The position numbers and the translations under genes were made by a program. Source: a virus (lineage: Duplodnaviria; Heunggongvirae; Uroviricota; Caudoviricetes). Taken from it: DNA of 8,791 nt. How positions within the stretch are numbered: the first letter of the stretch is position 1; the number at the start of each line of letters is the position of its first letter. Location of the stretch: positions 1 through 8,791 of IMG/VR virus record IMGVR_UViG_2740892488_000005; one strand, written 5' to 3'. The notes below the pieces were generated by a model, which saw only the letters and a program-made list of their open reading frames with translations, made no database searches and was not told where the DNA came from. Shown here piece by piece: positions 1 to 8,791 of the stretch.

Positions 1-46
1 ACTTGTGATAAATCCGAATGGTTTGGTCGCCGTTCGGGGTAACTGG

Positions 47-68
47 CCCGCCTTGTGCGGGTCTTTTT
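47..68 (+). terminator. Putative rho-independent terminator ending an upstream off-window transcript
   Basis: Hairpin CCCGC (47-51) / loop CTTGT / GCGGG (57-61) followed directly by TCTTTTT (62-68). A TAA at 40-42 could be the stop of a gene entering from the left. Confidence 0.45.
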
Positions 69-127
69 GCTATCTAAAGGGTGCCGGTTACGTTTCCGGC
101 GTCGTTATGTTTCCATTACGACCGTAC

Positions 128-200
128 AGGGCTGGTCAGGCCCGGGCTGGTCTTTCCTGTTTTGAGCTGGTCAGGCTCATGGTCAACGCTGGTCAGGCGT
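128..200 (-). repeat. Tandem array of three stem-loops with conserved 7-nt loop (TGGTCAG on plus, CUGACCA if transcribed leftward) and covarying 4-5 bp stems
   Basis: Loops at 133-139, 168-174 and 190-196. Stems GGGC/GCCC (129-132/140-143), TGAGC/GCTCA (163-167/175-179), ACGC/GCGT (186-189/197-200). Same element occurs inverted at 2191-2205 and 4615-4631. Confidence 0.6.
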
Positions 201-291
201 GGTACTTCCTCCGGTCTTTCCCTGGTGTCACGCTGCGGGTTTGGCCTCTCCTGTTGGGGACTCAGGCACAGCGATAAAACCTGGCTGTGTG

Positions 292-319
292 AAAAAATGG
301 CCCATCGTGCGGACTGGGC
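292..319 (-). terminator. Possible intrinsic terminator on the minus strand
   Basis: On the minus strand GCCCA / 10-nt loop / TGGGC (plus 300-304 pairs with 315-319), then C and a T6 run (plus A-run 292-297). Stem is short, so tentative. Confidence 0.3.
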
Positions 320-764
320 AAAGACTAAACACAGCAAATTGATGATGGGCGCCGGAATCGAACCGGGTAACGGGCAGGGAGTTCCCGTTAAACACCTGTT
401 CACCACAACCGGGAGCGCACTCCGCCATTTCAAAATTTAACGACAAAGCTCAAAGTTGAGTCGATGAAGTGCGCTCTCGTGTTGTAGCCAGGACTCTTCC
501 CTGGTGGTCACACCGTATCGCCTTGATGGTGAATCAATCGCTCATACCTGGCTGTGGCTTGCACATTCCGGCTACCTGCTATGGAGACAACGCGTTAAGG
601 CTCCGCTTCCATCCAGACCGCTTCGACACATGTGCCATATGCCGGTGAAGTCTTTCCCTCTGTCACCGTGTTGGCGCCGACGCGCAAAATTTGGTGCCGT
701 CTTTCCGGCTGTCAGAACGTGTTTCTGAACAACTGCCGCTGGGTAAGCGTTGTTGATGAAAGTG

Positions 765-820
765 ACTTTACAATTTGTATTTGTAATGGTCAATGTGTTT
801 TTAAAAAATAATTTGTAGTG
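765..820. promoter_or_regulatory. OL-like operator cluster downstream of the repressor gene
   Basis: AT-rich block with TTTGTA at 774-779, 780-785 and 812-817; palindrome TACAA-T-TTGTA at 769-779; 9-mer ATTTGTAAT (779-787) also present at 1372-1380 in the repressor/cro intergenic region. Confidence 0.4.
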
Positions 821-911
821 AGGGGCAAAAAAATATTCACTGTGTAAAGGTGTTTTTGTGTTAGGGGAAAGTTGCATGCCAGCAGCGGCTGGCCTGGAAA
901 TTTGAACTGAA

Positions 912-1304
912 CTATTTTGTCTGGTTTTTGGCTTCAAGTAGTTCTTTTAGCAGTAGATCGAAGTGCTCTCTTTTTTCTTTTAGCTCATTGATTAATTTAT
1001 TTTTTTCGCTCTCAGGCAGTCCTCTGAATAGTTGCAGTAGAGCCTGTTCTTGCGGGGTTAGTTCTTGATTGTAATTACCCGGGTGTAGTGTGGATTCATC
1101 CAAATATTCCCCTTCATTCATGAAGAAAAAATGAACAGGGTATCCGGTCACTTTTGCTAGCTTGTCTAATTTATCTTTTCTTGGAGTTACCCCATTACAC
1201 CATGCCTGAACTGATTGAGCCGTAACCCCAATATGGCGAGCTAACTCAGATTGAGACCAGCCTAAGTCTTTTAGAATCCGTTGTAGTCGGCTAGCAAAAG
1301 CCAT
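912..1304 (-). CDS. Prophage CI-like repressor, XRE-family HTH, 130 aa, with no LexA-like S24 peptidase domain
   Basis: ORF 912..1304 (-). N-terminal HTH signature (LGWSQSELARHIGVTAQSVQAW) and helical C-terminus; divergent from a cro-like gene across an operator-rich intergenic region. No Shine-Dalgarno within about 15 nt upstream of the ATG, so possibly a short-leader or leaderless mRNA. Confidence 0.8.
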   Translation of the reverse strand: MAFASRLQRILKDLGWSQSELARHIGVTAQSVQAWCNGVTPRKDKLDKLAKVTGYPVHFFFMNEGEYLDESTLHPGNYNQELTPQEQALLQLFRGLPESEKNKLINELKEKREHFDLLLKELLEAKNQTK

Positions 1305-1424
1305 GTTTTTCGTTTTTTGTGTTCATACCGTAAGGATACAAGGTTTAATTGTAGGGAGCATTGCAAATATAATTTGTAATTACAGTTATTGTTTGTAATG
1401 ATGACGCGGACACAAGGAGTCCAT
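1305..1424. promoter_or_regulatory. Divergent promoter/operator region between repressor and cro-like gene (OR-like)
   Basis: AT-rich 120 bp intergenic region with perfect 10-bp palindrome TGTAATTACA (1375-1384), further TTTGTA copies at 1373-1378 and 1392-1397, a TTGCAA -35-like hexamer at 1361-1366, and AAGGAG SD at 1414-1419. Confidence 0.55.
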
Positions 1425-1655
1425 ATGGATAAACAACTGCAAGACAAAATTCTTTCCGTAATGAGTCAATCCGAGTTAGGGCGGCGATTAGGGAAAAAAC
1501 CACAAACGGTAAGCCTCTGGTTCAAAGGACGGGTTCCCGGTGAAGAGGTTTTGCGCACATCTGAAGCTCTTGAATGGCGCGTGACCCCTCATGATCTTAG
1601 ACCGGATCTTTACCCAAACCCAGATGACAGCTTGCCTAAAACGGAAGCAGCTTAA
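1425..1655 (+). CDS. Cro/YdaS-like HTH regulator, 76 aa
   Basis: ATG at 1425 preceded by AAGGAG (1414-1419). The track ORF starts at 1389 but that ATG lies inside the operator repeats with no SD. HTH (SQSELGRRLGKKPQTVSLWF) and the C-terminal HDLRPDLY motif typical of Cro/YdaS-type prophage proteins. Confidence 0.75.
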   Translation: MDKQLQDKILSVMSQSELGRRLGKKPQTVSLWFKGRVPGEEVLRTSEALEWRVTPHDLRPDLYPNPDDSLPKTEAA

Positions 1656-1713
1656 CTGTTGGTGAGCCCCAAATCTGATTAAGCGTAATCAATTTTTAGC
1701 GACAGGAGACGCT

Positions 1714-2190
1714 ATGGAAAACCAAGAGGAATTACAAAAAGAGATTTTGACCTGGGCGGCAAGGGCAGGGCAGGAACTCGTCACGATTGAAATCTGCCGG
1801 GCCTGGTTCAGTCAGGGACGCAATGATGAGTTGAGACTACATGAATTTGAGGACGCGGACGGCAACGTGGACTGGAGAGCCATCAACAACAATCGGCAGA
1901 AAATCTTTCGCTGGTTACGTGGCGAGACAACGGCGGCGCGCCGAAAAACTCAGGTGCTGGCCAGTGTGATGAAAGCCGTGCTACCCGCAGAACGGCGGGC
2001 ACGTCTGGAGTCGCCGGGCGATCCCGTTTTGCTGGCAACGCTGGCGGCAAAAGAAGGGGTGGAAGCGATTAACGCTGTACATCTCCACTTCGCGCCAGAG
2101 TTAACTATTCAGGAAATTGACGAAGCAATAGCGGCGCTGGTAGCGACGCGAGGAGCAGTGATACGCACTGCGCAAGACCACCATGCATGA
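1714..2190 (+). CDS. YdaT-like (CII-analog) prophage regulator, 158 aa
   Basis: ORF 1714..2190 with AGGAG at 1703-1707. Contains the motif NNRQKIFRWLRGETTAARRK, which I recognise from Rac-prophage YdaT-family proteins; sits immediately after the Cro/YdaS-like gene as in Rac-type immunity regions. Confidence 0.65.
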   Translation: MENQEELQKEILTWAARAGQELVTIEICRAWFSQGRNDELRLHEFEDADGNVDWRAINNNRQKIFRWLRGETTAARRKTQVLASVMKAVLPAERRARLESPGDPVLLATLAAKEGVEAINAVHLHFAPELTIQEIDEAIAALVATRGAVIRTAQDHHA

Positions 2191-2229
2191 GCGCCTGACC
2201 AGCGTTTAACTTATACCGAGGAAAGACCG
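2190..2229 (+). promoter_or_regulatory. Stem-loop plus conserved SD leader cassette (copy A)
   Basis: Directly after the TGA at 2188-2190: stem GCGC/GCGT (2191-2194/2202-2205) with loop CTGACCA (2195-2201), 9-nt spacer, then ACCGAGGAAAGACC (2215-2228) and ATG at 2230. Same architecture at 4615-4651. Confidence 0.55.
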
Positions 2230-2388
2230 ATGTTAAGACATATTGACCGCATTACCTGGCGTAACGGCTGGCACCTGAATGGACGCCCGGCACATGTTGC
2301 AGAGATCCGCCCCATATTCGATGGCCGCGTCGCAGCTGCACGTTCTGTATGGGAAAAGTACGAAGAAGAAAAAAGCGAAACTGCGTGA
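2230..2388 (+). CDS. Hypothetical small protein, 52 aa (below the ORF-track size cutoff)
   Basis: ATG 2230 to TGA 2386-2388, translating MLRHIDRITWRNGWHLNGRPAHVAEIRPIFDGRVAARSVWEKYEEEKSETA. Supported by the strong SD (GAGGA) and by the identical 14-nt leader that precedes the 136-aa gene at 4652. Confidence 0.45.
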   Translation: MLRHIDRITWRNGWHLNGRPAHVAEIRPIFDGRVAAARSVWEKYEEEKSETA

Positions 2389-2451
2389 GCAAAATCTCTC
2401 TGGCGCTGCCTATGAGGCTGGCTGTCGCGTTCTCTCAGAGGCTTTGGGCAT

Positions 2452-3042
2452 ATGAACATCCTCCCGTTACTTGATAGACCCATAGCCTTCCAGAGAAGTT
2501 TTATCCGTCTTGAAATGGGCGTGACTGCCGCATTGTTTCTGTCGCAGTTGACGTACTGGACAAACAGAACAACTGACGACGGCTGGGTATATAAAACCCA
2601 GGATGAGTGGGAAGAGGAAACAGGGCTTTCACGATACGAGCAGGAGGGCGCGCGCAAAAAACTACGTGGTCTCGGCGTCTTGCTGGAACGTAAACAGGGC
2701 TTGCCTGCCAGGCTGTACTACAAAATCGATAATGATGTGTTGTGCCAGCTACTTACGTCCGCATACAAGGATGCGGAAAAACCACATACAGGTGAGGGGA
2801 AAACCACCAGGCCTGTACGTGGAAAACCAACAAACATTCTTACAGAGAATACTACAGAGATTATTACTGATGGTGAATCGGCTGACGCCGACACCCAACA
2901 ACCTGCCGACCAGAGAATAAATTATCAGGTGATACTCGATACCTATCACGAGATTTTGCCAGAGATGCCACCAGTGAAAATCCTCACTGACGGCAGAAAA
3001 AAAACACCTTCGCACTTTCTGGAAAAAATTCAATTTCAATGA
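2452..3042 (+). CDS. Phage replication initiation protein (replisome-organiser type, winged-helix N-terminal domain); reading frame probably disrupted near its 3' end
   Basis: ORF 2452..3042 (196 aa); N-terminal region resembles phage O-like/DnaD-like initiator winged-helix domains and lies directly upstream of a DnaB-family helicase. An adjacent frame stays open from 2978 to 3208 and ends overlapping the helicase start, suggesting a +1 frame change at A8 (2997-3004) or A6 (3023-3028). Confidence 0.6.
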   Translation: MNILPLLDRPIAFQRSFIRLEMGVTAALFLSQLTYWTNRTTDDGWVYKTQDEWEEETGLSRYEQEGARKKLRGLGVLLERKQGLPARLYYKIDNDVLCQLLTSAYKDAEKPHTGEGKTTRPVRGKPTNILTENTTEIITDGESADADTQQPADQRINYQVILDTYHEILPEMPPVKILTDGRKKTPSHFLEKIQFQ

Positions 3043-3197
3043 GTCCCGTTGGCGGGCCTATCTGGAATTTATCGGTGGCAATTGTCGCTGGATGCTGGAG
3101 GACAGGCCAAATGGCAGGGGAGGATTCTGGCGGCGTAAAAATCTTGATTATCTGATTACCGAACGCTGCTATGTTTCGGTCAAGGAAGAACGCGCAA

Positions 3198-4613
3198 ATG
3201 ATAAATAACGCGATTGCACTGTACAGCGTTGACGCAGAACAGGCTGTTCTGGGCTGTCTGATGCTGAATACCGACCACGACAGAACCAATGCGGTATTTG
3301 CGTTACTGAAACCGGAAACGTTTTATATCAATGCGCATCAGGTTATCTACCGGGAGATCAAAGGATTATTTCAAGCTGATAAACCAACTGACCTGATAAC
3401 ACTGACCGAACTGATGGAATCGAAGGGGCTGTATGAGCGCGTGGGGGGATTCGCATACCTGGCTGAAATGAGTAAGGCGGCGATTCCGGCCTCAATGGTC
3501 AACTACGCGAAAATTGTACGTGAAAAAGCCATTCTTCGTTATGCCGTGGAAAAGTTGAATTCTTGTCTGGAGATTATGATCCAGCCTGCAGATATGACTG
3601 CTACTGACAGGATCACCGCCGTTCAGCAAGTGATTGGGCAGGTGGCCGAACATTCCCGTACCGGGCATAAGGGCGGTTTGCGTCCGGCAAGTGAAGTCGT
3701 CGATGACTGGATAGATGACCTTGAGCGCCGTTTCAATGATCCAGCACATGCAGCCGGACTAACGCTCGGAATCGAAAGCCTTGATCGCTTAATGGCACCA
3801 AAGCAGGCGTTAAGAGGTTCATTGGTCGTTATTGGTGCCCGGCCAAAAATGGGCAAGACAGCCGCGTTTAATAAAATTGCGGTGCATTTTGCTCTGAATC
3901 ATCGTTTGCCGACGCTGGTATTTAGCCTGGAAATGACTGACAGAAGTCTCATTGAACGCATGGTTGCGCAGGAAGCAAAGGTCAATTCGGAGATTTTTTA
4001 TCTTGGCCCTAACGATGAATCTGAATTGAGTCTCGCAATAGCAAAGGCGGGGGAGATTGCCGAATCCAACATGATGATTGACAGCACGGCAGGTGTAACC
4101 CTTGCGCATATTGTCGCTGAATGTCGAAAAGTTAAACGGATGCGTGGCTCGGTTGGCCTGGTGGCAATTGACTATTTGACGCTGATGAAGACCGAATCGG
4201 CAGAGCGTAGGGATATTGCGTATGGCGATATCACAACCGGTTTGAAGAACCTGGCAAAAGAGCTGGATTGTGTTGTGGTCCTGCTGACGCAACTCAACCG
4301 AAAGCTTGAAGAACGTGCCGATAAGCGGCCTAACCCGAGCGACAGTAAAGATACCGGGCAGATCGAACAAGATTGCGATGTCTGGATTGGCCTCTATCGT
4401 GATGCTGTTTATAACGAAAATGCCGACCCAAATCTCATGGAAATGTTGCTACGTCTGAACCGCGAAGGACCATCGGGAACAGCCTATGCCCTGATGAAAA
4501 ATGGCTCAGTTATTGATATCAGCGATGAGGAGGTTTATCGCCTTACCAACGACCGCTCAGAAAAAAATAAACGTTATTCCCGTAGCGATAATTCTCGCAC
4601 AAATGAATTTTAA
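3198..4613 (+). CDS. DnaB-family replicative DNA helicase (phage-encoded, P22 gp12-like)
   Basis: Track ORF 3171..4613; preferred start is ATG 3198 with AAGGAAG SD at 3183-3189. DnaB N-terminal motif (SVDAEQAVLGCLML), Walker A (GARPKMGKTA), SLEM motif, and LTQLNRKLEERADKRPNPSDSKDTGQIEQDCDVWIGLYRD matching the DnaB H3/H4 region. Confidence 0.9.
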   Translation: MINNAIALYSVDAEQAVLGCLMLNTDHDRTNAVFALLKPETFYINAHQVIYREIKGLFQADKPTDLITLTELMESKGLYERVGGFAYLAEMSKAAIPASMVNYAKIVREKAILRYAVEKLNSCLEIMIQPADMTATDRITAVQQVIGQVAEHSRTGHKGGLRPASEVVDDWIDDLERRFNDPAHAAGLTLGIESLDRLMAPKQALRGSLVVIGARPKMGKTAAFNKIAVHFALNHRLPTLVFSLEMTDRSLIERMVAQEAKVNSEIFYLGPNDESELSLAIAKAGEIAESNMMIDSTAGVTLAHIVAECRKVKRMRGSVGLVAIDYLTLMKTESAERRDIAYGDITTGLKNLAKELDCVVVLLTQLNRKLEERADKRPNPSDSKDTGQIEQDCDVWIGLYRDAVYNENADPNLMEMLLRLNREGPSGTAYALMKNGSVIDISDEEVYRLTNDRSEKNKRYSRSDNSRTNEF

Positions 4614-4614
4614 C

Positions 4615-4651
4615 CACGCCTGACCAGCGTGAAATAACCGAGGAAAGACCA
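4615..4651 (+). promoter_or_regulatory. Stem-loop plus conserved SD leader cassette (copy B)
   Basis: Directly after the helicase TAA (4611-4613): stem CACGC/GCGTG (4615-4619/4627-4631) with loop CTGACCA (4620-4626), 5-nt spacer, then ACCGAGGAAAGACC (4637-4650) and ATG at 4652. Confidence 0.55.
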
Positions 4652-5062
4652 ATGACCACCACTCCAGGCAAATTAGAGTACCCGTCGGACAAAGGACACA
4701 TAGACGACGGTAAAAACTATCTCGACGTCATTTTGTGGAATATGAACGTCGGGCCACGTGCGCGCACTCGCGCGGTTTTTGTGCCAAGACCTAAAGCAGG
4801 CAATTTTTCAACCCCTGCTAAGCCTGCCCGTCAGGCATCCGTAGCCGCAGCGCCAGCAGTGAAACGTAAGGGCAAAACGCACACCGGGATCGCGATTCGC
4901 AGAAATGGTGAGCGGCAAGTGAAACTCCACGAAACAGCGACAACCTGGTGTGCCTCACCGCATGAAACTTACGACAAGATAACCGGGCAGCGCATTGGCG
5001 CGCCTGGTCGCTGCCGCCTGCTGCTGAGTTCCATCACTCCGATAGCAAAGAAAGGGGCGTGA
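4652..5062 (+). CDS. Hypothetical protein, 136 aa
   Basis: ORF 4652..5062 with the conserved SD leader; enterobacterial-style codon usage (CTG, GCG, CCG rich); no competing ORF on either strand. No family recognised. Confidence 0.6.
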   Translation: MTTTPGKLEYPSDKGHIDDGKNYLDVILWNMNVGPRARTRAVFVPRPKAGNFSTPAKPARQASVAAAPAVKRKGKTHTGIAIRRNGERQVKLHETATTWCASPHETYDKITGQRIGAPGRCRLLLSSITPIAKKGA

Positions 5063-5063
5063 T

Positions 5064-5300
5064 ATGGCCGGGCAATCAGATTACCTGCCGCCCGGCTTAC
5101 CACACAACCGCGCCAAATGGCCCCAGGAATACCAGCTTAAAGAGCACTACGACATGCGAGCGGCGGCGCTGATCCGCCAACTCTTTGAGAAACGTATTCC
5201 GAGGGGAAGCGTGATTGAGCAAATCGGAATGACGCCAGATACGTACCGGGAATTTTTCAGAGAGCGTCTGAACTACTGGAGAGGGGTGATGGAACAATGA
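5064..5300 (+). CDS. Hypothetical protein, 78 aa
   Basis: ORF 5064..5300, starting 1 nt after the previous stop; purine-rich AAAGGGG upstream. Its stop overlaps the next start in an ATGA arrangement. Confidence 0.55.
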   Translation: MAGQSDYLPPGLPHNRAKWPQEYQLKEHYDMRAAALIRQLFEKRIPRGSVIEQIGMTPDTYREFFRERLNYWRGVMEQ

Positions 5301-5608
5301 AATACAAACGGTGGGTGCGTGCGGAAGTCGTAATCATCAAACAATGTGCGGGCAGCATGACAGTTGAACGTATAGGGCAGCTTATTGGCAGAACCGGTGC
5401 AGCGGTACGCACAAAAGCGCGCGAGCTGAAAATCTGTATGTATCTGCGGGGTAATTATCACCAGTCAGTGAAATACCTCCAGGAAGATATCGAGCTGGCA
5501 AGGGAATTACATCAGTCGGGTATTAATCGCCAGGATATCGCAGAAAAACTCGAAATGCCGATCGGAGCGGTGAATCAGTTTGTTTATTTTGAGCGGAGAA
5601 TTTCATGA
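5297..5608 (+). CDS. Hypothetical DNA-binding protein with two HTH-like segments, 103 aa
   Basis: ORF 5297..5608; ATGA overlap with the upstream gene. Two helix-turn-helix-like stretches (MTVERIGQLIGRTGAAVRTKAREL and INRQDIAEKLEMPIGAVNQFV); the HTH assignment is inferred from sequence pattern only. Confidence 0.5.
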   Translation: MKYKRWVRAEVVIIKQCAGSMTVERIGQLIGRTGAAVRTKARELKICMYLRGNYHQSVKYLQEDIELARELHQSGINRQDIAEKLEMPIGAVNQFVYFERRIS

Positions 5609-5829
5609 AAGAACTTTTTCTTGCATTTGTGCCCCGGTTTATTAATGACCAGATCGCACTGACTGATAATGGTGAACAATATGAAATTGCCTGCAGCATG
5701 GTGGATGTGAATCCTGGCGAACGGTATGACGCGATGTGTGACCTGAAAATATTTACCTGGCTGGGTTGGGCTATTCCGTGTGGAGAACCAACCAATATTC
5801 GTCCGTTTGAGAGCAGGGAGGCTGTATGA
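5605..5829 (+). CDS. Hypothetical protein, 74 aa
   Basis: ORF 5605..5829; ATGA overlap with the upstream stop, part of the coupled small-gene chain. Confidence 0.5.
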   Translation: MKELFLAFVPRFINDQIALTDNGEQYEIACSMVDVNPGERYDAMCDLKIFTWLGWAIPCGEPTNIRPFESREAV

Positions 5830-5942
5830 GTGAATTGAAAATACGTCGCAAGGCAATAGCACGCGTTAAAAATCTATTACCAGTGCCTGTCAAATATCGT
5901 TTTTGTGGTGGGAATGTACGGATTGGTACGGATGTATGGTGA
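5826..5942 (+). CDS. Possible small ORF, 38 aa
   Basis: ATG 5826 overlapping the upstream stop (ATGA), stop TGA at 5940-5942, translating MSELKIRRKAIARVKNLLPVPVKYRFCGGNVRIGTDVW. Only positional evidence. Confidence 0.3.
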   Translation: MSELKIRRKAIARVKNLLPVPVKYRFCGGNVRIGTDVW

Positions 5943-6016
5943 TTGCGGAGTGACGTAAAACGAATCGTTGTGGGTGTAATATCGTCAATATCATTGGTTT
6001 CCCGGAGGGAAAGGAC

Positions 6017-6238
6017 ATGTTTGGCGATAAACTGGAGTTACCACGGAACGGGCGGATAGTGCTCTATATTTCAGATTACAAAGTAACCCGGGCTGAGGTG
6101 TTGGAACCGGAAAAACATCTGGTCACGTTACCGGACATTATTGAGTTGTATAAGCGGGTCGGATATGTGGACTTGCATCGCGATGATGTTCCCGTTGAGT
6201 GTATGGAATGTGAACACCGGAGGTTTGAAGTTGATTGA
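6017..6238 (+). CDS. Hypothetical protein, 73 aa
   Basis: ORF 6017..6238 preceded by GGAGGGAAAGG; followed about 90 nt downstream by a terminator-like hairpin plus T7. Confidence 0.5.
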   Translation: MFGDKLELPRNGRIVLYISDYKVTRAEVLEPEKHLVTLPDIIELYKRVGYVDLHRDDVPVECMECEHRRFEVD

Positions 6239-6329
6239 ATTGACTTAGAAAAAGTCCGGGGCTATAGTTTCCGCGCAGCCGCAAAATCGGTTGCCGGGAT
6301 TGGCGTCCCGGATATCTAAGTGACGCATA

Positions 6330-6349
6330 GCCGCGTTAGCGGTTTTTTT
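6330..6349 (+). terminator. Putative intrinsic terminator closing the small-gene operon
   Basis: GCCGC (6330-6334) / loop GTTA / GCGG (6339-6342) followed by T7 (6343-6349). Short stem, moderate confidence. Confidence 0.45.
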
Positions 6350-6448
6350 ATGTGTTAGGCACGGCCACATTCGCATTATGGTGGGCTGTGTGGGGGCTTC
6401 TGTGGAAGCGCCGGGTTCACTTAGCCGGTTACGCCAACCCTGCACAGC

Positions 6449-6481
6449 TCACCACCAGATGATTGGCGTCGCTGGTGGTGA
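6449..6481. promoter_or_regulatory. Perfect 10-bp inverted repeat immediately upstream of the antirepressor start
   Basis: TCACCACCAG (6449-6458), 13-nt spacer ATGATTGGCGTCG, CTGGTGGTGA (6472-6481); right arm contains the Chi octamer GCTGGTGG (6471-6478). Antirepressor SD AAGTGAGG at 6495-6502 and ATG at 6511. Confidence 0.4.
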
Positions 6482-6510
6482 TGAAAAAAACACTAAGTGA
6501 GGCCACTGCG

Positions 6511-7300
6511 ATGACAGTCCAAATATCTGCGGAATCCCTTTCTCCGCTACATCATAACCAACTTCCCGTCATCACTACTGAATTGCTTGCCAGTTTGTAT
6601 GGCACGGAAGTAAATGGTATCCAGCAAAACTTCAAGCGCAACATCGCCAGATTTGTCGTAGGAAAGCATTTTTTTTAAGCTGGAAGGTAATGAATTACGC
6701 GACTTCAAAAACAGACTGACAGATAGTCAGTCAGTTGCTAAACATACCCGATCCCTCATTCTCTGGACAGAACGCGGCGCAGCTCGCCATGCCAAAATGC
6801 TGGAAACAGAACAGGCCTGGGAAGTTTTCGAAAAGCTGGAAGATTGTTATTTTAGCCAGCGTCCAGAGAGGCGGAGTACAACTACCGATGACCGTACTCC
6901 CTTGCGTGATGCCGTTAATATACTGGTCGGCAAGAAAGGCATGATGTATCCCGATGCCTACACCATGATTCATCAACGCTTCGCCGTCTCTCACATAGAA
7001 CAACTGTCACAGACGCAAATGTTAGAGGCGATTGAATACATCCACTGCCTGCTACTCGATGAAAATCACCCAACCATTCCAGATTTTTCTTTTATCACCA
7101 CTATCAAAAATGGAAAAGTGACCGGGATGCGCCATGTTGCCAAAGGCGAACATCTGATGACCTTTGACGCTTTCAAAGAGATCGCTGAGCGGGCAGGGTA
7201 TCTGGTGATCCACAGCGACAATCTGCGAAGTATGACACTGGATAAATTGATGGTAATGGGGAAAAAGTCGGCTATATCCGTTGCTAATTCAGCATTTTGA
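6511..7300 (+). pseudogene. Phage antirepressor-type regulatory protein, interrupted by a frameshift in a T8 run
   Basis: N-terminal part in frame 1 (6511-6678, ends GKHFF-stop) and C-terminal part in frame 2 (track ORF 6797..7300, open from 6677). Removing one T from T8 (6669-6676) gives a continuous ~262-aa protein with the conserved stretch GKHFFKLEGNELRDFKN...SLILWTERGAARHAKMLETEQAWEVFEKLEDCYF, which I recognise as antirepressor-like. Confidence 0.65.
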
Positions 7301-7427
7301 CAGGTTGTTTGGGGCGGAAATACTCTATTTGCGCTTAAAAAGGTATTTGACCACGACCAGCACGAGACCGAATACCTCTGTCAAAGTACCGCCCATATAA
7401 AACAGTTACATATGCACTTGATGACTA

Positions 7428-7459
7428 AGCTGGCACCAGGTTAACACCTGGCGCCAGCT
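7428..7459. other. Strong near-perfect hairpin between convergent genes (14-bp stem, one mismatch, 4-nt loop)
   Basis: AGCTGGCACCAGGT (7428-7441) / TAAC / ACCTGGCGCCAGCT (7446-7459). No U-tract on either strand, so not a canonical intrinsic terminator. Confidence 0.4.
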
Positions 7460-7589
7460 TGAAGGAGACTTCAGTTATTGGTTTCTGAGGAAAGCGATTC
7501 TTGAAAGGGTCATTTGCGTCTGGCAGTCGACCATTTTCTTGACTTCAGCATCTGTTCCCTGCATTGAAACTTTACCGCACATAGCATCC

Positions 7590-8294
7590 TTAGTTTTGAT
7601 CCACTGACGCTGAGAAGGCAGCAAATCTTTTTTTCTTCGCCGGGGTTAACTTGCTCCAGACGGTACTCAAATCAGAGTCGGCATTCGCAAATGCCATTCG
7701 GGACTGATCAAGGTTGTCAGCTTTTTGCGGCTGAAGTTGTGCCTGTCTCTCTATTTGCTTCTCCGCCTCATACTTAGCCTGTTCTTGCGCCCTGAGTTGC
7801 ACCTGTTGTTCCGCTTCAATTTGACTCTGTTGGGCATCCTTAGCCTGCTGGATTTTCTGCTGCTCAACGATCGGGGTGATAATGGAAAGCGATGTCAGTA
7901 AAGCGGCGCCCACTGATATCGGATTATCAGTAGAGGTTTTTACAAAAACGTTTTTCTGATCGTCGGTCGCCTGCACGGTGTAGGTGATACGTTTTGAAAA
8001 GGCGTTTGCGTTGTTCTCCAAAAACAGGCTTTCCATTTGCTTATCGAGATTACGATTAAAATTCTTTCTGTAAGCATCTGAAAGCTGGACGTACTCGTTC
8101 GCAGATAGAGTCATCGTCACGGTCCCTTCACAAGTTTTCATTGTGCTGCCCGTGTCACTTGATGTTGTGGAGATCTCAGAGATGGCTAGTTTGATCTTGT
8201 CCAGTGTGCTTCGTTTGGTCTGATTAGTGACATCAGGGTATTTATCGACCTGTTCAGAGAGTCCTTCATAAGCAGATTTTTTTAATAAATCCAT
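7590..8294 (-). CDS. Hypothetical protein, 234 aa: N-terminal domain, central hydrophobic helix, Gln/Glu-rich coiled-coil C-terminal region
   Basis: ORF 7590..8294 (-). Hydrophobic stretch ISVGAALLTSLSIITPIV followed by a heptad-like Q/E/A-rich segment. Frame stays open upstream of the ATG until a stop at plus 8358-8360, inside the IS end, so the native 5' end or promoter may have been displaced by the IS insertion. Confidence 0.55.
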   Translation of the reverse strand: MDLLKKSAYEGLSEQVDKYPDVTNQTKRSTLDKIKLAISEISTTSSDTGSTMKTCEGTVTMTLSANEYVQLSDAYRKNFNRNLDKQMESLFLENNANAFSKRITYTVQATDDQKNVFVKTSTDNPISVGAALLTSLSIITPIVEQQKIQQAKDAQQSQIEAEQQVQLRAQEQAKYEAEKQIERQAQLQPQKADNLDQSRMAFANADSDLSTVWSKLTPAKKKRFAAFSASVDQN

Positions 8295-8420
8295 GAGAGC
8301 TGACTGGGTTATTTCCGAAGAACAACCGATCTCATCTTTTTTGTTATCTGAAGTGGTTTACTGAATTTGGCCACCTGAACAGAGGTGATATGCTCACCTC
8401 AGAACAACACAGGTGCCATA

Positions 8421-8721
8421 ATGAAAAAAAGAAATTTCAGCGCAGAGTTTAAACGCGAATCCGCTCAACTGGTCGTTGACCAGAATTACACCGTGGCAGA
8501 TGCAGCCAGCGCTATGGATGTCGGCCTTTCCACAATGACGCGATGGGTGAAACAATTACGTGATGAGCGGCAGGGAAAACACCAAAAGCCTCCCCTATTA
8601 CCCCGGAACAAATTGAAATCCGTGAGCTCAGGAAAAAGCTACAACGTATTGAAATGGAAAATGAAATATTAAAAAGGCTACCGCGCTCTTGATGTCAGAC
8701 TCCCTGAACAGTTCTCGATAA
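8421..8721 (+). pseudogene. IS3-family transposase OrfA (HTH plus leucine-zipper regulator), apparently frameshifted twice
   Basis: [53 protein letters not shown] in frame 3 (from 8421); expected continuation [27 protein letters not shown] in frame 2 from 8597; expected C-terminus [14 protein letters not shown] in frame 1 ending at TAA 8719-8721. Frame changes coincide with an A4 run (8576-8579) and the A5G slippery-site region (8671-8676). Confidence 0.65.
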
Positions 8722-8791
8722 TCGGGAAACTCAGGGCGCGTTATCCTGTGGCCACTCTCTGCCATGTGTTCGGGGTCCATCGCAGCAGCTA
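8676..8791 (+). CDS. IS3-family transposase OrfB, N-terminal part (3' end beyond the window)
   Basis: Frame 3 open from 8676 to the window end with a typical OrfB N-terminus ([16 protein letters not shown]). Confidence 0.6.

Follow-up and report, generated by a model that had tools for sequence, protein, structure and literature searches.

Probable remnant of an LprI-family lipoprotein gene beneath a 234-codon open reading frame beside ISEc52 in a lambdoid prophage

Results

The open reading frame at 7590-8294 and its neighbours

The window, by which we mean the whole stretch of 8,791 nucleotides that was analysed (positions 1 to 8,791 of IMG/VR record IMGVR_UViG_2740892488_000005), carries in its right part a minus-strand open reading frame of 234 codons, which appears at 7590-8294 in the list of open reading frames of the window. 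On one side lies a gene for an ORF6N (antirepressor-like) protein, on the other the left end of the insertion sequence ISEc52. In agreement with the original prediction, no other gene in this part of the window points leftward, the frame converges with the ORF6N gene, and its product contains a hydrophobic stretch (ISVGAALLTSLSIITPIV) followed by a stretch rich in Q and E. Coordinates of these and other features are collected in Table 1.

Table 1. Features in the right part of the window, with residue numbers referring to the intact 307-aa protein
Feature	Position	Strand	Description	Evidence
Reported 234-aa ORF	7590..8294	-	From internal Met35 of the true protein to an out-of-frame TAA	Comparison with the intact allele
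Very probable lipoprotein-gene remnant	7475..8348	-	Codons 18-307 of a 307-aa LprI-family/ScwA-like protein, with one extra base; true stop at 7475-7477	DNA equals JJ1887 L001:6176-7048 except for one indel
49-aa ORF	7475..7624	-	True C-terminus, with the conserved QRQWIKxKDxxCG...C half of the LprI domain; Cys274 and Cys292	PF07007, 23.9 bits; invariant columns
Hairpin	7428..7459		Perfect, 14 bp, between the convergent genes, just beyond the true stop; terminator-like, without a clear U-tract	-32.8 kcal/mol, z -6.1
T7 homopolymer	7628..7634		A7 on the coding strand, where references have 6; the frame shifts after Lys257, giving the false stop at 7590	
N-terminal alpha+beta domain	7935..8315	-	Residues 29-155; invariant Cys26 and Cys90; cystatin/NTF2-like roll with no close solved relative	
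Long helix	7737..7922	-	Residues 160-221; hydrophobic start, then a Q/E/A/K-rich spacer whose length varies between orthologues, absent from ScwA	
Hydrophobic stretch ISVGAALLTSLSIITPIV	7866..7919	-	Residues 161-178; initial turns of the long helix, modelled confidently in one segment with the N-domain	
C-terminal three-helix LprI/DUF1311 domain	7487..7727	-	Residues 225-304 (three-helix bundle at 230-305 in the AF2 model); interrupted by the frameshift in the window copy	
Left end of ISEc52 (IS3 family)	8349..8791	+	Terminal repeat TGAAGTGG...; orfA from ATG 8421, cut by the window end; -1 differences at 8576 and 8671	

The open frame does exist, but both of its ends are artefacts. Its ATG (8294) encodes Met35, which is internal to a longer protein, and for this reason no Shine-Dalgarno sequence precedes it, although a weak one had been proposed. 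Upstream of this ATG the frame stays open through 8348 and is closed by a TAA that sits inside the IS end, which confirms the earlier reading of a frame running into the IS. At the other end, directly 3' of the 234-aa frame and in another frame, the 49-aa product reads LLPSQRQWIKTKDAMCGK...DCQTQMT, and the two frames overlap at the run of seven A on the coding strand. In a Pfam search, LprI was not matched by the 234-aa product; the 49-aa ORF on its own matches PF07007 (LprI) with 23.9 bits (gathering threshold 22 bits), over positions 60-106 of the 106-position model. Removing one A from the run fuses both frames and restores the full LprI domain, which scores 30.9 bits in the frame-repaired window sequence and 30.8 bits in the intact allele described below. 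The extra base therefore puts the last 50 codons, which are half of the LprI domain, out of frame. The hairpin of Table 1 lies just past the stop codon at 7475-7477, and so fits a natural gene end at 7475 rather than at 7590.

Intact alleles and their distribution

An intact allele of 924 bp is present in strain JJ1887 (L001:6176-7099, AX202_RS10645), in the same prophage and with the same neighbour genes as in the window. Its product, WP_001237642.1, has 307 aa and is annotated "lysozyme inhibitor LprI family protein". Over 7475-8348 the two DNA sequences are identical except for one homopolymer base; relative to WP_001237642.1, the window copy is without codons 1-17 and everything upstream of them, where ISEc52 now lies, and is out of frame after codon 257. 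We consider it very probable that the minus-strand interval 7475-8348 is a damaged copy of the prophage gene for this LprI/DUF1311 lipoprotein.

WP_001237642.1 begins with MRLKYSVLLLAIALTGCDNKKDEIGCSSEITQSALMDLLKK..., in which a hydrophobic core separates a basic n-region from the lipobox L-T-G-C, and AAGGGA stands six bases upstream of the true start. This true start, which opens the signal peptide and lipobox (MRLKYSVLLLAIALTG/C), is located 34 codons upstream of the ATG of the reported frame. The pattern [LVI][ASTVI][GAS]C, which marks a substrate of signal peptidase II, is found in the intact allele (LTG/C) and not in the window copy. The suspicion that the frame might be truncated at its N-terminus, with its upstream region cut by the IS, is thus borne out: ISEc52 follows the Cys17 codon, uninterrupted alleles have their true start upstream, and the window copy is a fragment. 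The intact protein, as a predicted lipoprotein with lipobox Cys17, also agrees with the envelope association that had been suggested.

The gene is not rare. The 1,051 bp around the ORF, used as a query, match 432 complete E. coli genomes with at least 99% identity, and 437 of the 5,426 complete genomes searched contain most of the query, including O25b:H4/ST131-type strains such as JJ1887. The family as a whole comprises about 128 clusters at 90% identity, with more than 100 protein clusters in Enterobacterales, and has members in Escherichia, Citrobacter (where it is very common), Enterobacter, Yersinia rohdei, Pantoea, Erwinia, Morganella, Proteus and Mannheimia. An exhaustive profile search returned 521 clusters at 50% identity (229 of them at E<=1e-10); among the best 150 of these 521, most are 290-330 aa long and match both the N-terminal and the C-terminal part. 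Residues 36-307 also match PHROG 5094, a family of unknown function, at E 6e-187. A tblastn search of 50,697 phage records gave no match, so the gene is seen in prophages and not in deposited phage genomes. Searches of NCBIfam yielded only sub-threshold traces of the signal peptide, among them a TrbK/VirB7 trace that lies far below the cut-off. The gene is already annotated and is found here in a damaged state; the designation of its product as an orphan with no nameable family does not survive the PF07007 match after frame repair, the PHROG match and the number of E. coli genomes that carry the gene.

The extra base in the light of other homopolymer differences

Over 7,053 bp the window differs from JJ1887 by no substitution and by five indels, all of them +1 in A/T runs (1313, 2369, 2997, 6669 and 7628). 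Over the 443 bp of ISEc52 there is again no substitution, and there are two indels, both -1 in A runs (8576 and 8671); the latter takes one base from the A6G slippery site of the element. In total there are seven homopolymer-length differences (five at +1, two at -1) and no substitutions in about 7.5 kb, and these differences break at least five reading frames in the window, including those of a replication-region gene, the ORF6N gene and the IS transposase. The T7 allele itself is absent from all 5,426 complete E. coli genomes searched. As the extra base at 7628-7634 is one of seven such differences accompanied by no substitution, it is most likely an error of sequencing or assembly.

An alternative is that the extra base reflects genuine slippage, and that the gene was inactivated twice, by the IS and by the frameshift. 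Slippage in homopolymers is a common true mutation, a second lesion would be neutral since the IS already kills the gene, and independent lesions occur in the same gene in other strains. However, two of the differences disrupt the transposase of a multicopy IS and others disrupt the replication-region and ORF6N genes, and the pattern is typical of homopolymer base-calling error rather than of mutation; we therefore regard a double inactivation as unlikely. Since the same error pattern breaks at least four further reading frames in the window, readings of this sequence that are based on open reading frames need to be made with care.

The ISEc52 insertion

Prophage sequence extends up to 8348, and ISEc52 starts at 8349 with TGAAGTGGTTTACTGAATTTGG. 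Only the first 443 bp of the element lie in the window; these have the same terminal sequence and orfA as ISEc52, from which they differ by the two -1 homopolymer runs, and they align with 0 mismatches over 443 bp to the ISEc52 copy annotated in NZ_CM190134.1 (window 8349-8791). An HTH_Tnp_1 domain is recognised by Pfam in the product of orfA. The junction (8348/8349) falls between the codon for Cys17 of the lipobox (TGT) and that for Asp18 (GAT), so that ISEc52 parts the promoter, the ribosome-binding site, the signal peptide and the lipidation Cys from the body of the gene. The far side of the IS is beyond the window, and there the detached 5' piece of 51 bp (...ATGAGATTAAAATACTCAGTACTCTTACTCGCCATTGCCCTTACAGGCTGT) and a target-site duplication would be expected. 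The remnant and ISEc52 point away from each other and meet at their 5' ends.

The exact junction of the window was found in none of the 5,426 complete E. coli genomes, and the insertion thus appears to be private to the source strain. ISEc52 insertions at three different sites of the gene are found in ST131-type strains. We infer that the insertion in the window is genuine; a misassembly at the repeat instead of a true insertion is formally conceivable, as the far side of the IS lies outside the window.

The remnant is, in all probability, a dead gene in the source strain. With promoter, ribosome-binding site, signal peptide and lipidation Cys all missing from it, efficient transcription, translation, export and lipidation would not be expected, and hence no exported product is predicted; a cytoplasmic fragment of a disulfide-dependent periplasmic protein would, moreover, be unlikely to fold. 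A promoter supplied by the IS had been envisaged in the original prediction, but it is unsupported, as a consensus scan of 7250-8791 found no minus-strand promoter-like site, in the IS end or elsewhere; such a scan is a weak test, and low-level read-out from the IS is possible. What looked like an orphan with a membrane helix is an annotated gene that has received an IS insertion and, probably, a sequencing error in a homopolymer.

Domain architecture and homology to ScwA

The AF2 model of the intact protein has a pLDDT of 83.6 for the whole protein and of 91.7 for the N-domain, and divides it into an N-terminal domain, a long helix and a C-terminal domain (Table 1). Together with conservation from E. 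coli to Proteus and Mannheimia, this confident model sets the gene well apart from a chance reading frame. The C-terminal domain has the three-helix fold of solved DUF1311 structures, with their conserved Cys pair; a sequence search of the intact protein against the PDB gave nothing significant. Among 27 aligned family members, the lipobox Cys (C17) and C26, C90, C274 and C292 are invariant, and the Q/E-rich middle differs in length by tens of residues.

We compared the protein with ScwA (SL1344_0490) of Salmonella Typhimurium. The ScwA sequence was recovered by way of a primer from Table S2 of the ScwA paper, which was searched in metagenome contigs, and was taken as the ORF beside ybaP, from its second Met; the recovered protein has 275 aa and Cys residues at 30, 100, 237 and 259, as published. 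BLASTP aligned the E. coli protein with it over the full length (E 2e-10, 21% identity), and hhalign gave a probability of 98.4% (E 7e-15, 242 columns) for residues 11-305 against 15-272. The Cys residues align as C26/C30, C90/C100, C274/C237 and C292/C259. By these sequence comparisons the family is homologous to ScwA over its full length, although remotely, and the protein therefore has a homologue whose function is partly known. This homologue and the uninterrupted alleles tell against the original prediction on both of the grounds that it had itself named.

Both proteins have the same order of parts, an N-terminal domain followed by a C-terminal LprI domain, and ScwA is likewise horizontally acquired and periplasmic. 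They differ in that ScwA is a soluble protein of 275-278 aa with a signal for signal peptidase I and a Leu at the place of the family's lipobox Cys, whereas the intact E. coli allele encodes 307 aa with the lipobox LTG/C; ScwA also lacks the Q/E-rich helical spacer (about 45-70 residues) of the E. coli family, and its gene is chromosomal (ybaP-copA), whereas the E. coli gene lies in a prophage. ScwA is the only characterised protein that we found with the N-domain plus LprI architecture. MltD, a lytic transglycosylase, reaches higher levels through ScwA, and Slt, AmiC and several peptidases are affected as well; overproduction of ScwA leads to lysis, ScwA does not protect from lysozyme, and loss of scwA makes Salmonella hypervirulent in mice (PMC7933661).

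The Cys residues of ScwA that correspond to those of the family form two DsbA-dependent periplasmic disulfides (PMC7933661). In the E. coli protein the pairs would be intradomain (C26-C90 and C274-C292); the ScwA paper had proposed interdomain pairs, from a predictor (PMC7933661).

The hydrophobic stretch had been read as one membrane helix. In the E. coli protein the Kyte-Doolittle mean over 19 residues peaks at 1.79, for PISVGAALLTSLSIITPIV, which is above the usual threshold. In five homologues including ScwA, however, the equivalent segment reaches only 0.66-1.06 and contains charged residues; the AF2 model places the segment (pLDDT about 90) as part of the N-domain, against which it is packed; conserved Cys pairs flank it on both sides; and ScwA fractionates as a soluble periplasmic protein (PMC7933661). 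These four observations argue against a transmembrane segment, and the segment is better regarded as a buried or amphipathic helix that would not span the membrane.

A dimeric coiled coil is not supported for the Q/E-rich part: AF2 predicts one long helix, and the large hydrophobic residues, inspected by eye, do not follow a regular heptad. Of the earlier description, the Q/E-rich stretch stands and the coiled coil is unsupported; a spacer or stalk of variable length is the simpler account.

Genomic context

The E. coli gene is carried by a lambdoid prophage, on the strand opposite to the early genes. The ORF6N gene is its neighbour on one side; on the other, several hypothetical genes and a gene for an ImmA/IrrE peptidase separate it from a DUF1367 gene about 5 kb away. 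In lambdoid prophages of Enterobacter, the orthologue occupies the same place in the nin region (O/P ... DinI, gene, DUF1367, RusA, Q). Location in the nin region bears out the view of the gene as accessory cargo (a moron) of a lambdoid prophage. The Citrobacter, Proteus and Pantoea genes stand alone on the chromosome amid housekeeping genes, and in the single Morganella case the gene directly follows yfhM (alpha-2-macroglobulin) and pbpC. A neighbour gene conserved across genera was looked for and none was found. The subfamily, whose members join a cystatin/NTF2-like domain to an LprI domain through a variable Q-rich stalk, is thus common in Enterobacterales and moves between chromosomes and lambdoid prophages; its product is an Enterobacterales envelope protein picked up as prophage cargo, with no phage-specific function.

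Superinfection exclusion or abortive infection had been put forward as candidate functions, and is unsupported, as a search with the PADLOC defence models returned 0 families at E<=1. We regard it as very improbable that the locus encodes an orphan transmembrane/coiled-coil protein of this kind, translated from the ATG at 8294 and perhaps driven by an IS promoter. The open frame exists, its hydrophobic 19-mer reaches 1.79 on the Kyte-Doolittle scale, and the gene occupies a moron slot; on the other side stand a known family, an internal Met without Shine-Dalgarno sequence as the start and a frameshift artefact as the stop, the weakly hydrophobic segments of the homologues (among them the soluble ScwA), the Cys pairs on both sides of the segment, the negative defence-model and promoter searches, and the orthologues of Citrobacter, Proteus and Pantoea, which are plain chromosomal genes.

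Possible function of the intact protein

The intact protein would consist of an alpha+beta N-domain that is periplasmic and tethered to the membrane, a Q/E-rich helix of about 60 residues that serves as a variable spacer, and the three-helix LprI domain at the C-terminus. In such an arrangement the N-domain would sit near the membrane, and the helix, about 9 nm long if rigid, would carry the LprI domain toward the peptidoglycan. In E. coli, Asp-Asn at positions +2/+3 behind the lipidated Cys is classically a signal for Lol avoidance. Given the Asp at +2 after the lipid-modified Cys, the lipoproteins of the clade comprising Escherichia, Citrobacter, Enterobacter and Pantoea are probably retained in the inner membrane; more distant family members have Gly at +2.

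Full-length homology to ScwA leads to a concrete hypothesis by analogy, namely that the protein modulates peptidoglycan hydrolases. More specifically, we tentatively propose, at somewhat less than even confidence, that the intact protein may bind or modulate peptidoglycan-cleaving enzymes (lytic transglycosylase or lysozyme-like) in the periplasm. Peptidoglycan glycosidases are candidate partners because ScwA controls the levels of a lytic transglycosylase, because DUF1311 proteins are linked to T6SS immunity, and because the fold resembles that of TsiV3. Among the options that this proposal covers, control of endogenous hydrolases in the manner of ScwA would be the most likely, orphan T6SS immunity would come next, and inhibition of host lysozyme would be the least likely, since the MliC domain is absent and ScwA gave no lysozyme protection.

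The second of these lines of evidence could also be read to mean that the protein is a prophage-borne orphan immunity protein against lysozyme-like or lytic-transglycosylase T6SS effectors of competitors. Small DUF1311 proteins have been predicted, and in one case reported, to confer immunity to cell-wall-targeting T6SS effectors (PMC9796082, PMC8867033, PMC12135965, PMC12981562), whose genes they adjoin, and the predicted periplasmic, membrane-tethered position of the E. coli protein would suit such a role. The three-helix bundle has a fold similar to that of TsiV3, but the match is generic, as apolipophorin is matched with the same Z. The single-domain PF07007 proteins (P. putida PP0307, PDB 3gi7; the T6SS immunity proteins EHEC Etsi4 and Salmonella Dublin SED_RS06230) have about 100-150 aa, and the known DUF1311 immunity proteins are likewise small (146 aa, for example) and adjoin an effector; the E. 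coli protein, in contrast, is without an effector neighbour and has in addition a lipid anchor, a stalk and a conserved N-domain of 130 aa. Genes for T6SS components or effectors were absent within 5-8 kb of the gene in the E. coli, Citrobacter, Proteus, Enterobacter, Morganella and Pantoea loci. An orphan immunity function is therefore rather doubtful.

The annotation suggests another role, that of an inhibitor of host (c-type) lysozyme which protects the lysogen in its host. The Pfam LprI domain is present, M. tuberculosis LprI (Rv1541c), which is likewise a lipoprotein with an LprI domain, inhibits lysozyme according to Sethi 2016 as cited in PMC7933661, and Ivy, itself a lysozyme inhibitor, occurs together with the orthologue in a single Enterobacter prophage. 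However, the MliC domain of M. tuberculosis LprI is reported to be sufficient for lysozyme resistance (PMC7933661), and this domain is missing in the E. coli protein, which also differs in its remaining domain composition: PF09864 (MliC) gave no match at E<=1 with the frame-repaired window sequence or at E<=0.01 with the intact allele. ScwA, the only characterised homologue with the same architecture, does not protect from lysozyme either. Inhibition of host lysozyme is accordingly unlikely, and the database name "lysozyme inhibitor" is not supported for the ScwA-like lipoprotein subfamily.

What remains of interest is the function of this subfamily and the three independent ISEc52 insertions in the gene. 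A more speculative conjecture, to which we would give little credence, joins the two: the intact gene might be a lysogenic-conversion factor, an inner-membrane-tethered, stalked paralogue of ScwA whose LprI domain reaches toward the peptidoglycan and there sequesters or tunes lysozyme-fold or lytic-transglycosylase enzymes, be they endogenous (MltD, Slt) or T6SS-injected, and its repeated knock-out by ISEc52 might be adaptive and not neutral. If so, the ISEc52 knock-outs in ST131-type strains would echo the hypervirulence of Salmonella scwA mutants.

ISEc52 insertions in the lipoprotein gene

The 924-bp lipoprotein gene, of which the window carries a remnant, has been interrupted by the IS3-family element ISEc52 at three distinct sites, each in different strains (see table). 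Either the element prefers this gene as a target, or loss of the gene may be under selection. Across 5,426 complete RefSeq genomes, only 3 contain one or another of these junctions. The allele interrupted after codon 259 corresponds to a 259-aa protein, P0071, with 166 member sequences. The family also varies in the long Q/E-rich helix, where the 315-aa E. coli allele P0002 carries an 8-residue tandem duplication (EQQVQLRA); this is consistent with the helix being a length-tolerant spacer.

Coordinates of features in the window and in related loci
Feature	Location	Strand	Remark
cI-like repressor gene	window 912-1304	-	~900 bp with no ORF above 121 aa to its left
c4 target a1b1	window 6262-6314	+	Rfam
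isrK	window 6275-6349	+	Rfam, 80 bits
C4 antisense RNA	window 6374-6459	+	Rfam, 75 bits
ISEc52 junction 1	window 8348/8349		after codon 17
ISEc52 junction 2	L002 ~3432/3433		near codon 173; NZ_CM190134.1 and two sister strains
ISEc52 junction 3	L029 3777/3778		after codon 259; CP088658.1
Ivy gene and orthologue of lipoprotein gene	Enterobacter contig L020, 2178-2591 and 5001-5966
+1 homopolymer changes	window 1313, 2369, 2997, 6669, 7628		comparison with references
-1 homopolymer changes	window 8576, 8671		comparison with references

Orthologues in other genera

An orthologue of the lipoprotein gene occupies the same nin-region slot in a lambdoid prophage of Enterobacter, represented by a metagenome contig. 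The same prophage has a separate gene for Ivy (PF08816, inhibitor of vertebrate lysozyme) between its antiterminator and terminase genes, and thus carries together two cargo genes of the envelope or peptidoglycan-protection type. In Morganella (L022/L023 1-6002), the orthologue is found directly 3' of yfhM and pbpC; this upstream pair, of which yfhM encodes a bacterial alpha-2-macroglobulin, is a cell-envelope gene pair.

Sequence accuracy of the window

All differences between the window and near-identical references are one-base length changes in A/T homopolymers, with no substitutions between them. The changes break the reading frames of the antirepressor-like ORF6N gene, two replication-region ORFs, the lipoprotein gene and the IS transposase. 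Judged from this pattern, sequencing or assembly error is the likely cause and ORF calls across the window are therefore unreliable.

Other features of the prophage

The isrK, C4 antisense RNA and a1b1 target matches (6262-6459, +) adjoin the ORF6N gene (~6511-7300) on its upstream side; together they give this lambdoid prophage an immI-like RNA switch of the P1/P7 type. At the left end of the window, positions 1-911 hold no ORF longer than 121 aa, are without annotation in the reference genomes and gave no Rfam or tRNA match; their GC content is 51.5%, versus 48.5% for the whole window. Between the ORF6N and lipoprotein genes, a 78-bp stretch (7326-7403) forms a short dispersed repeat: the reference prophage (JJ1887) has a second copy of 90% identity ~2.4 kb farther along, at L001 9448-9525, where it adjoins the end of another leftward gene.
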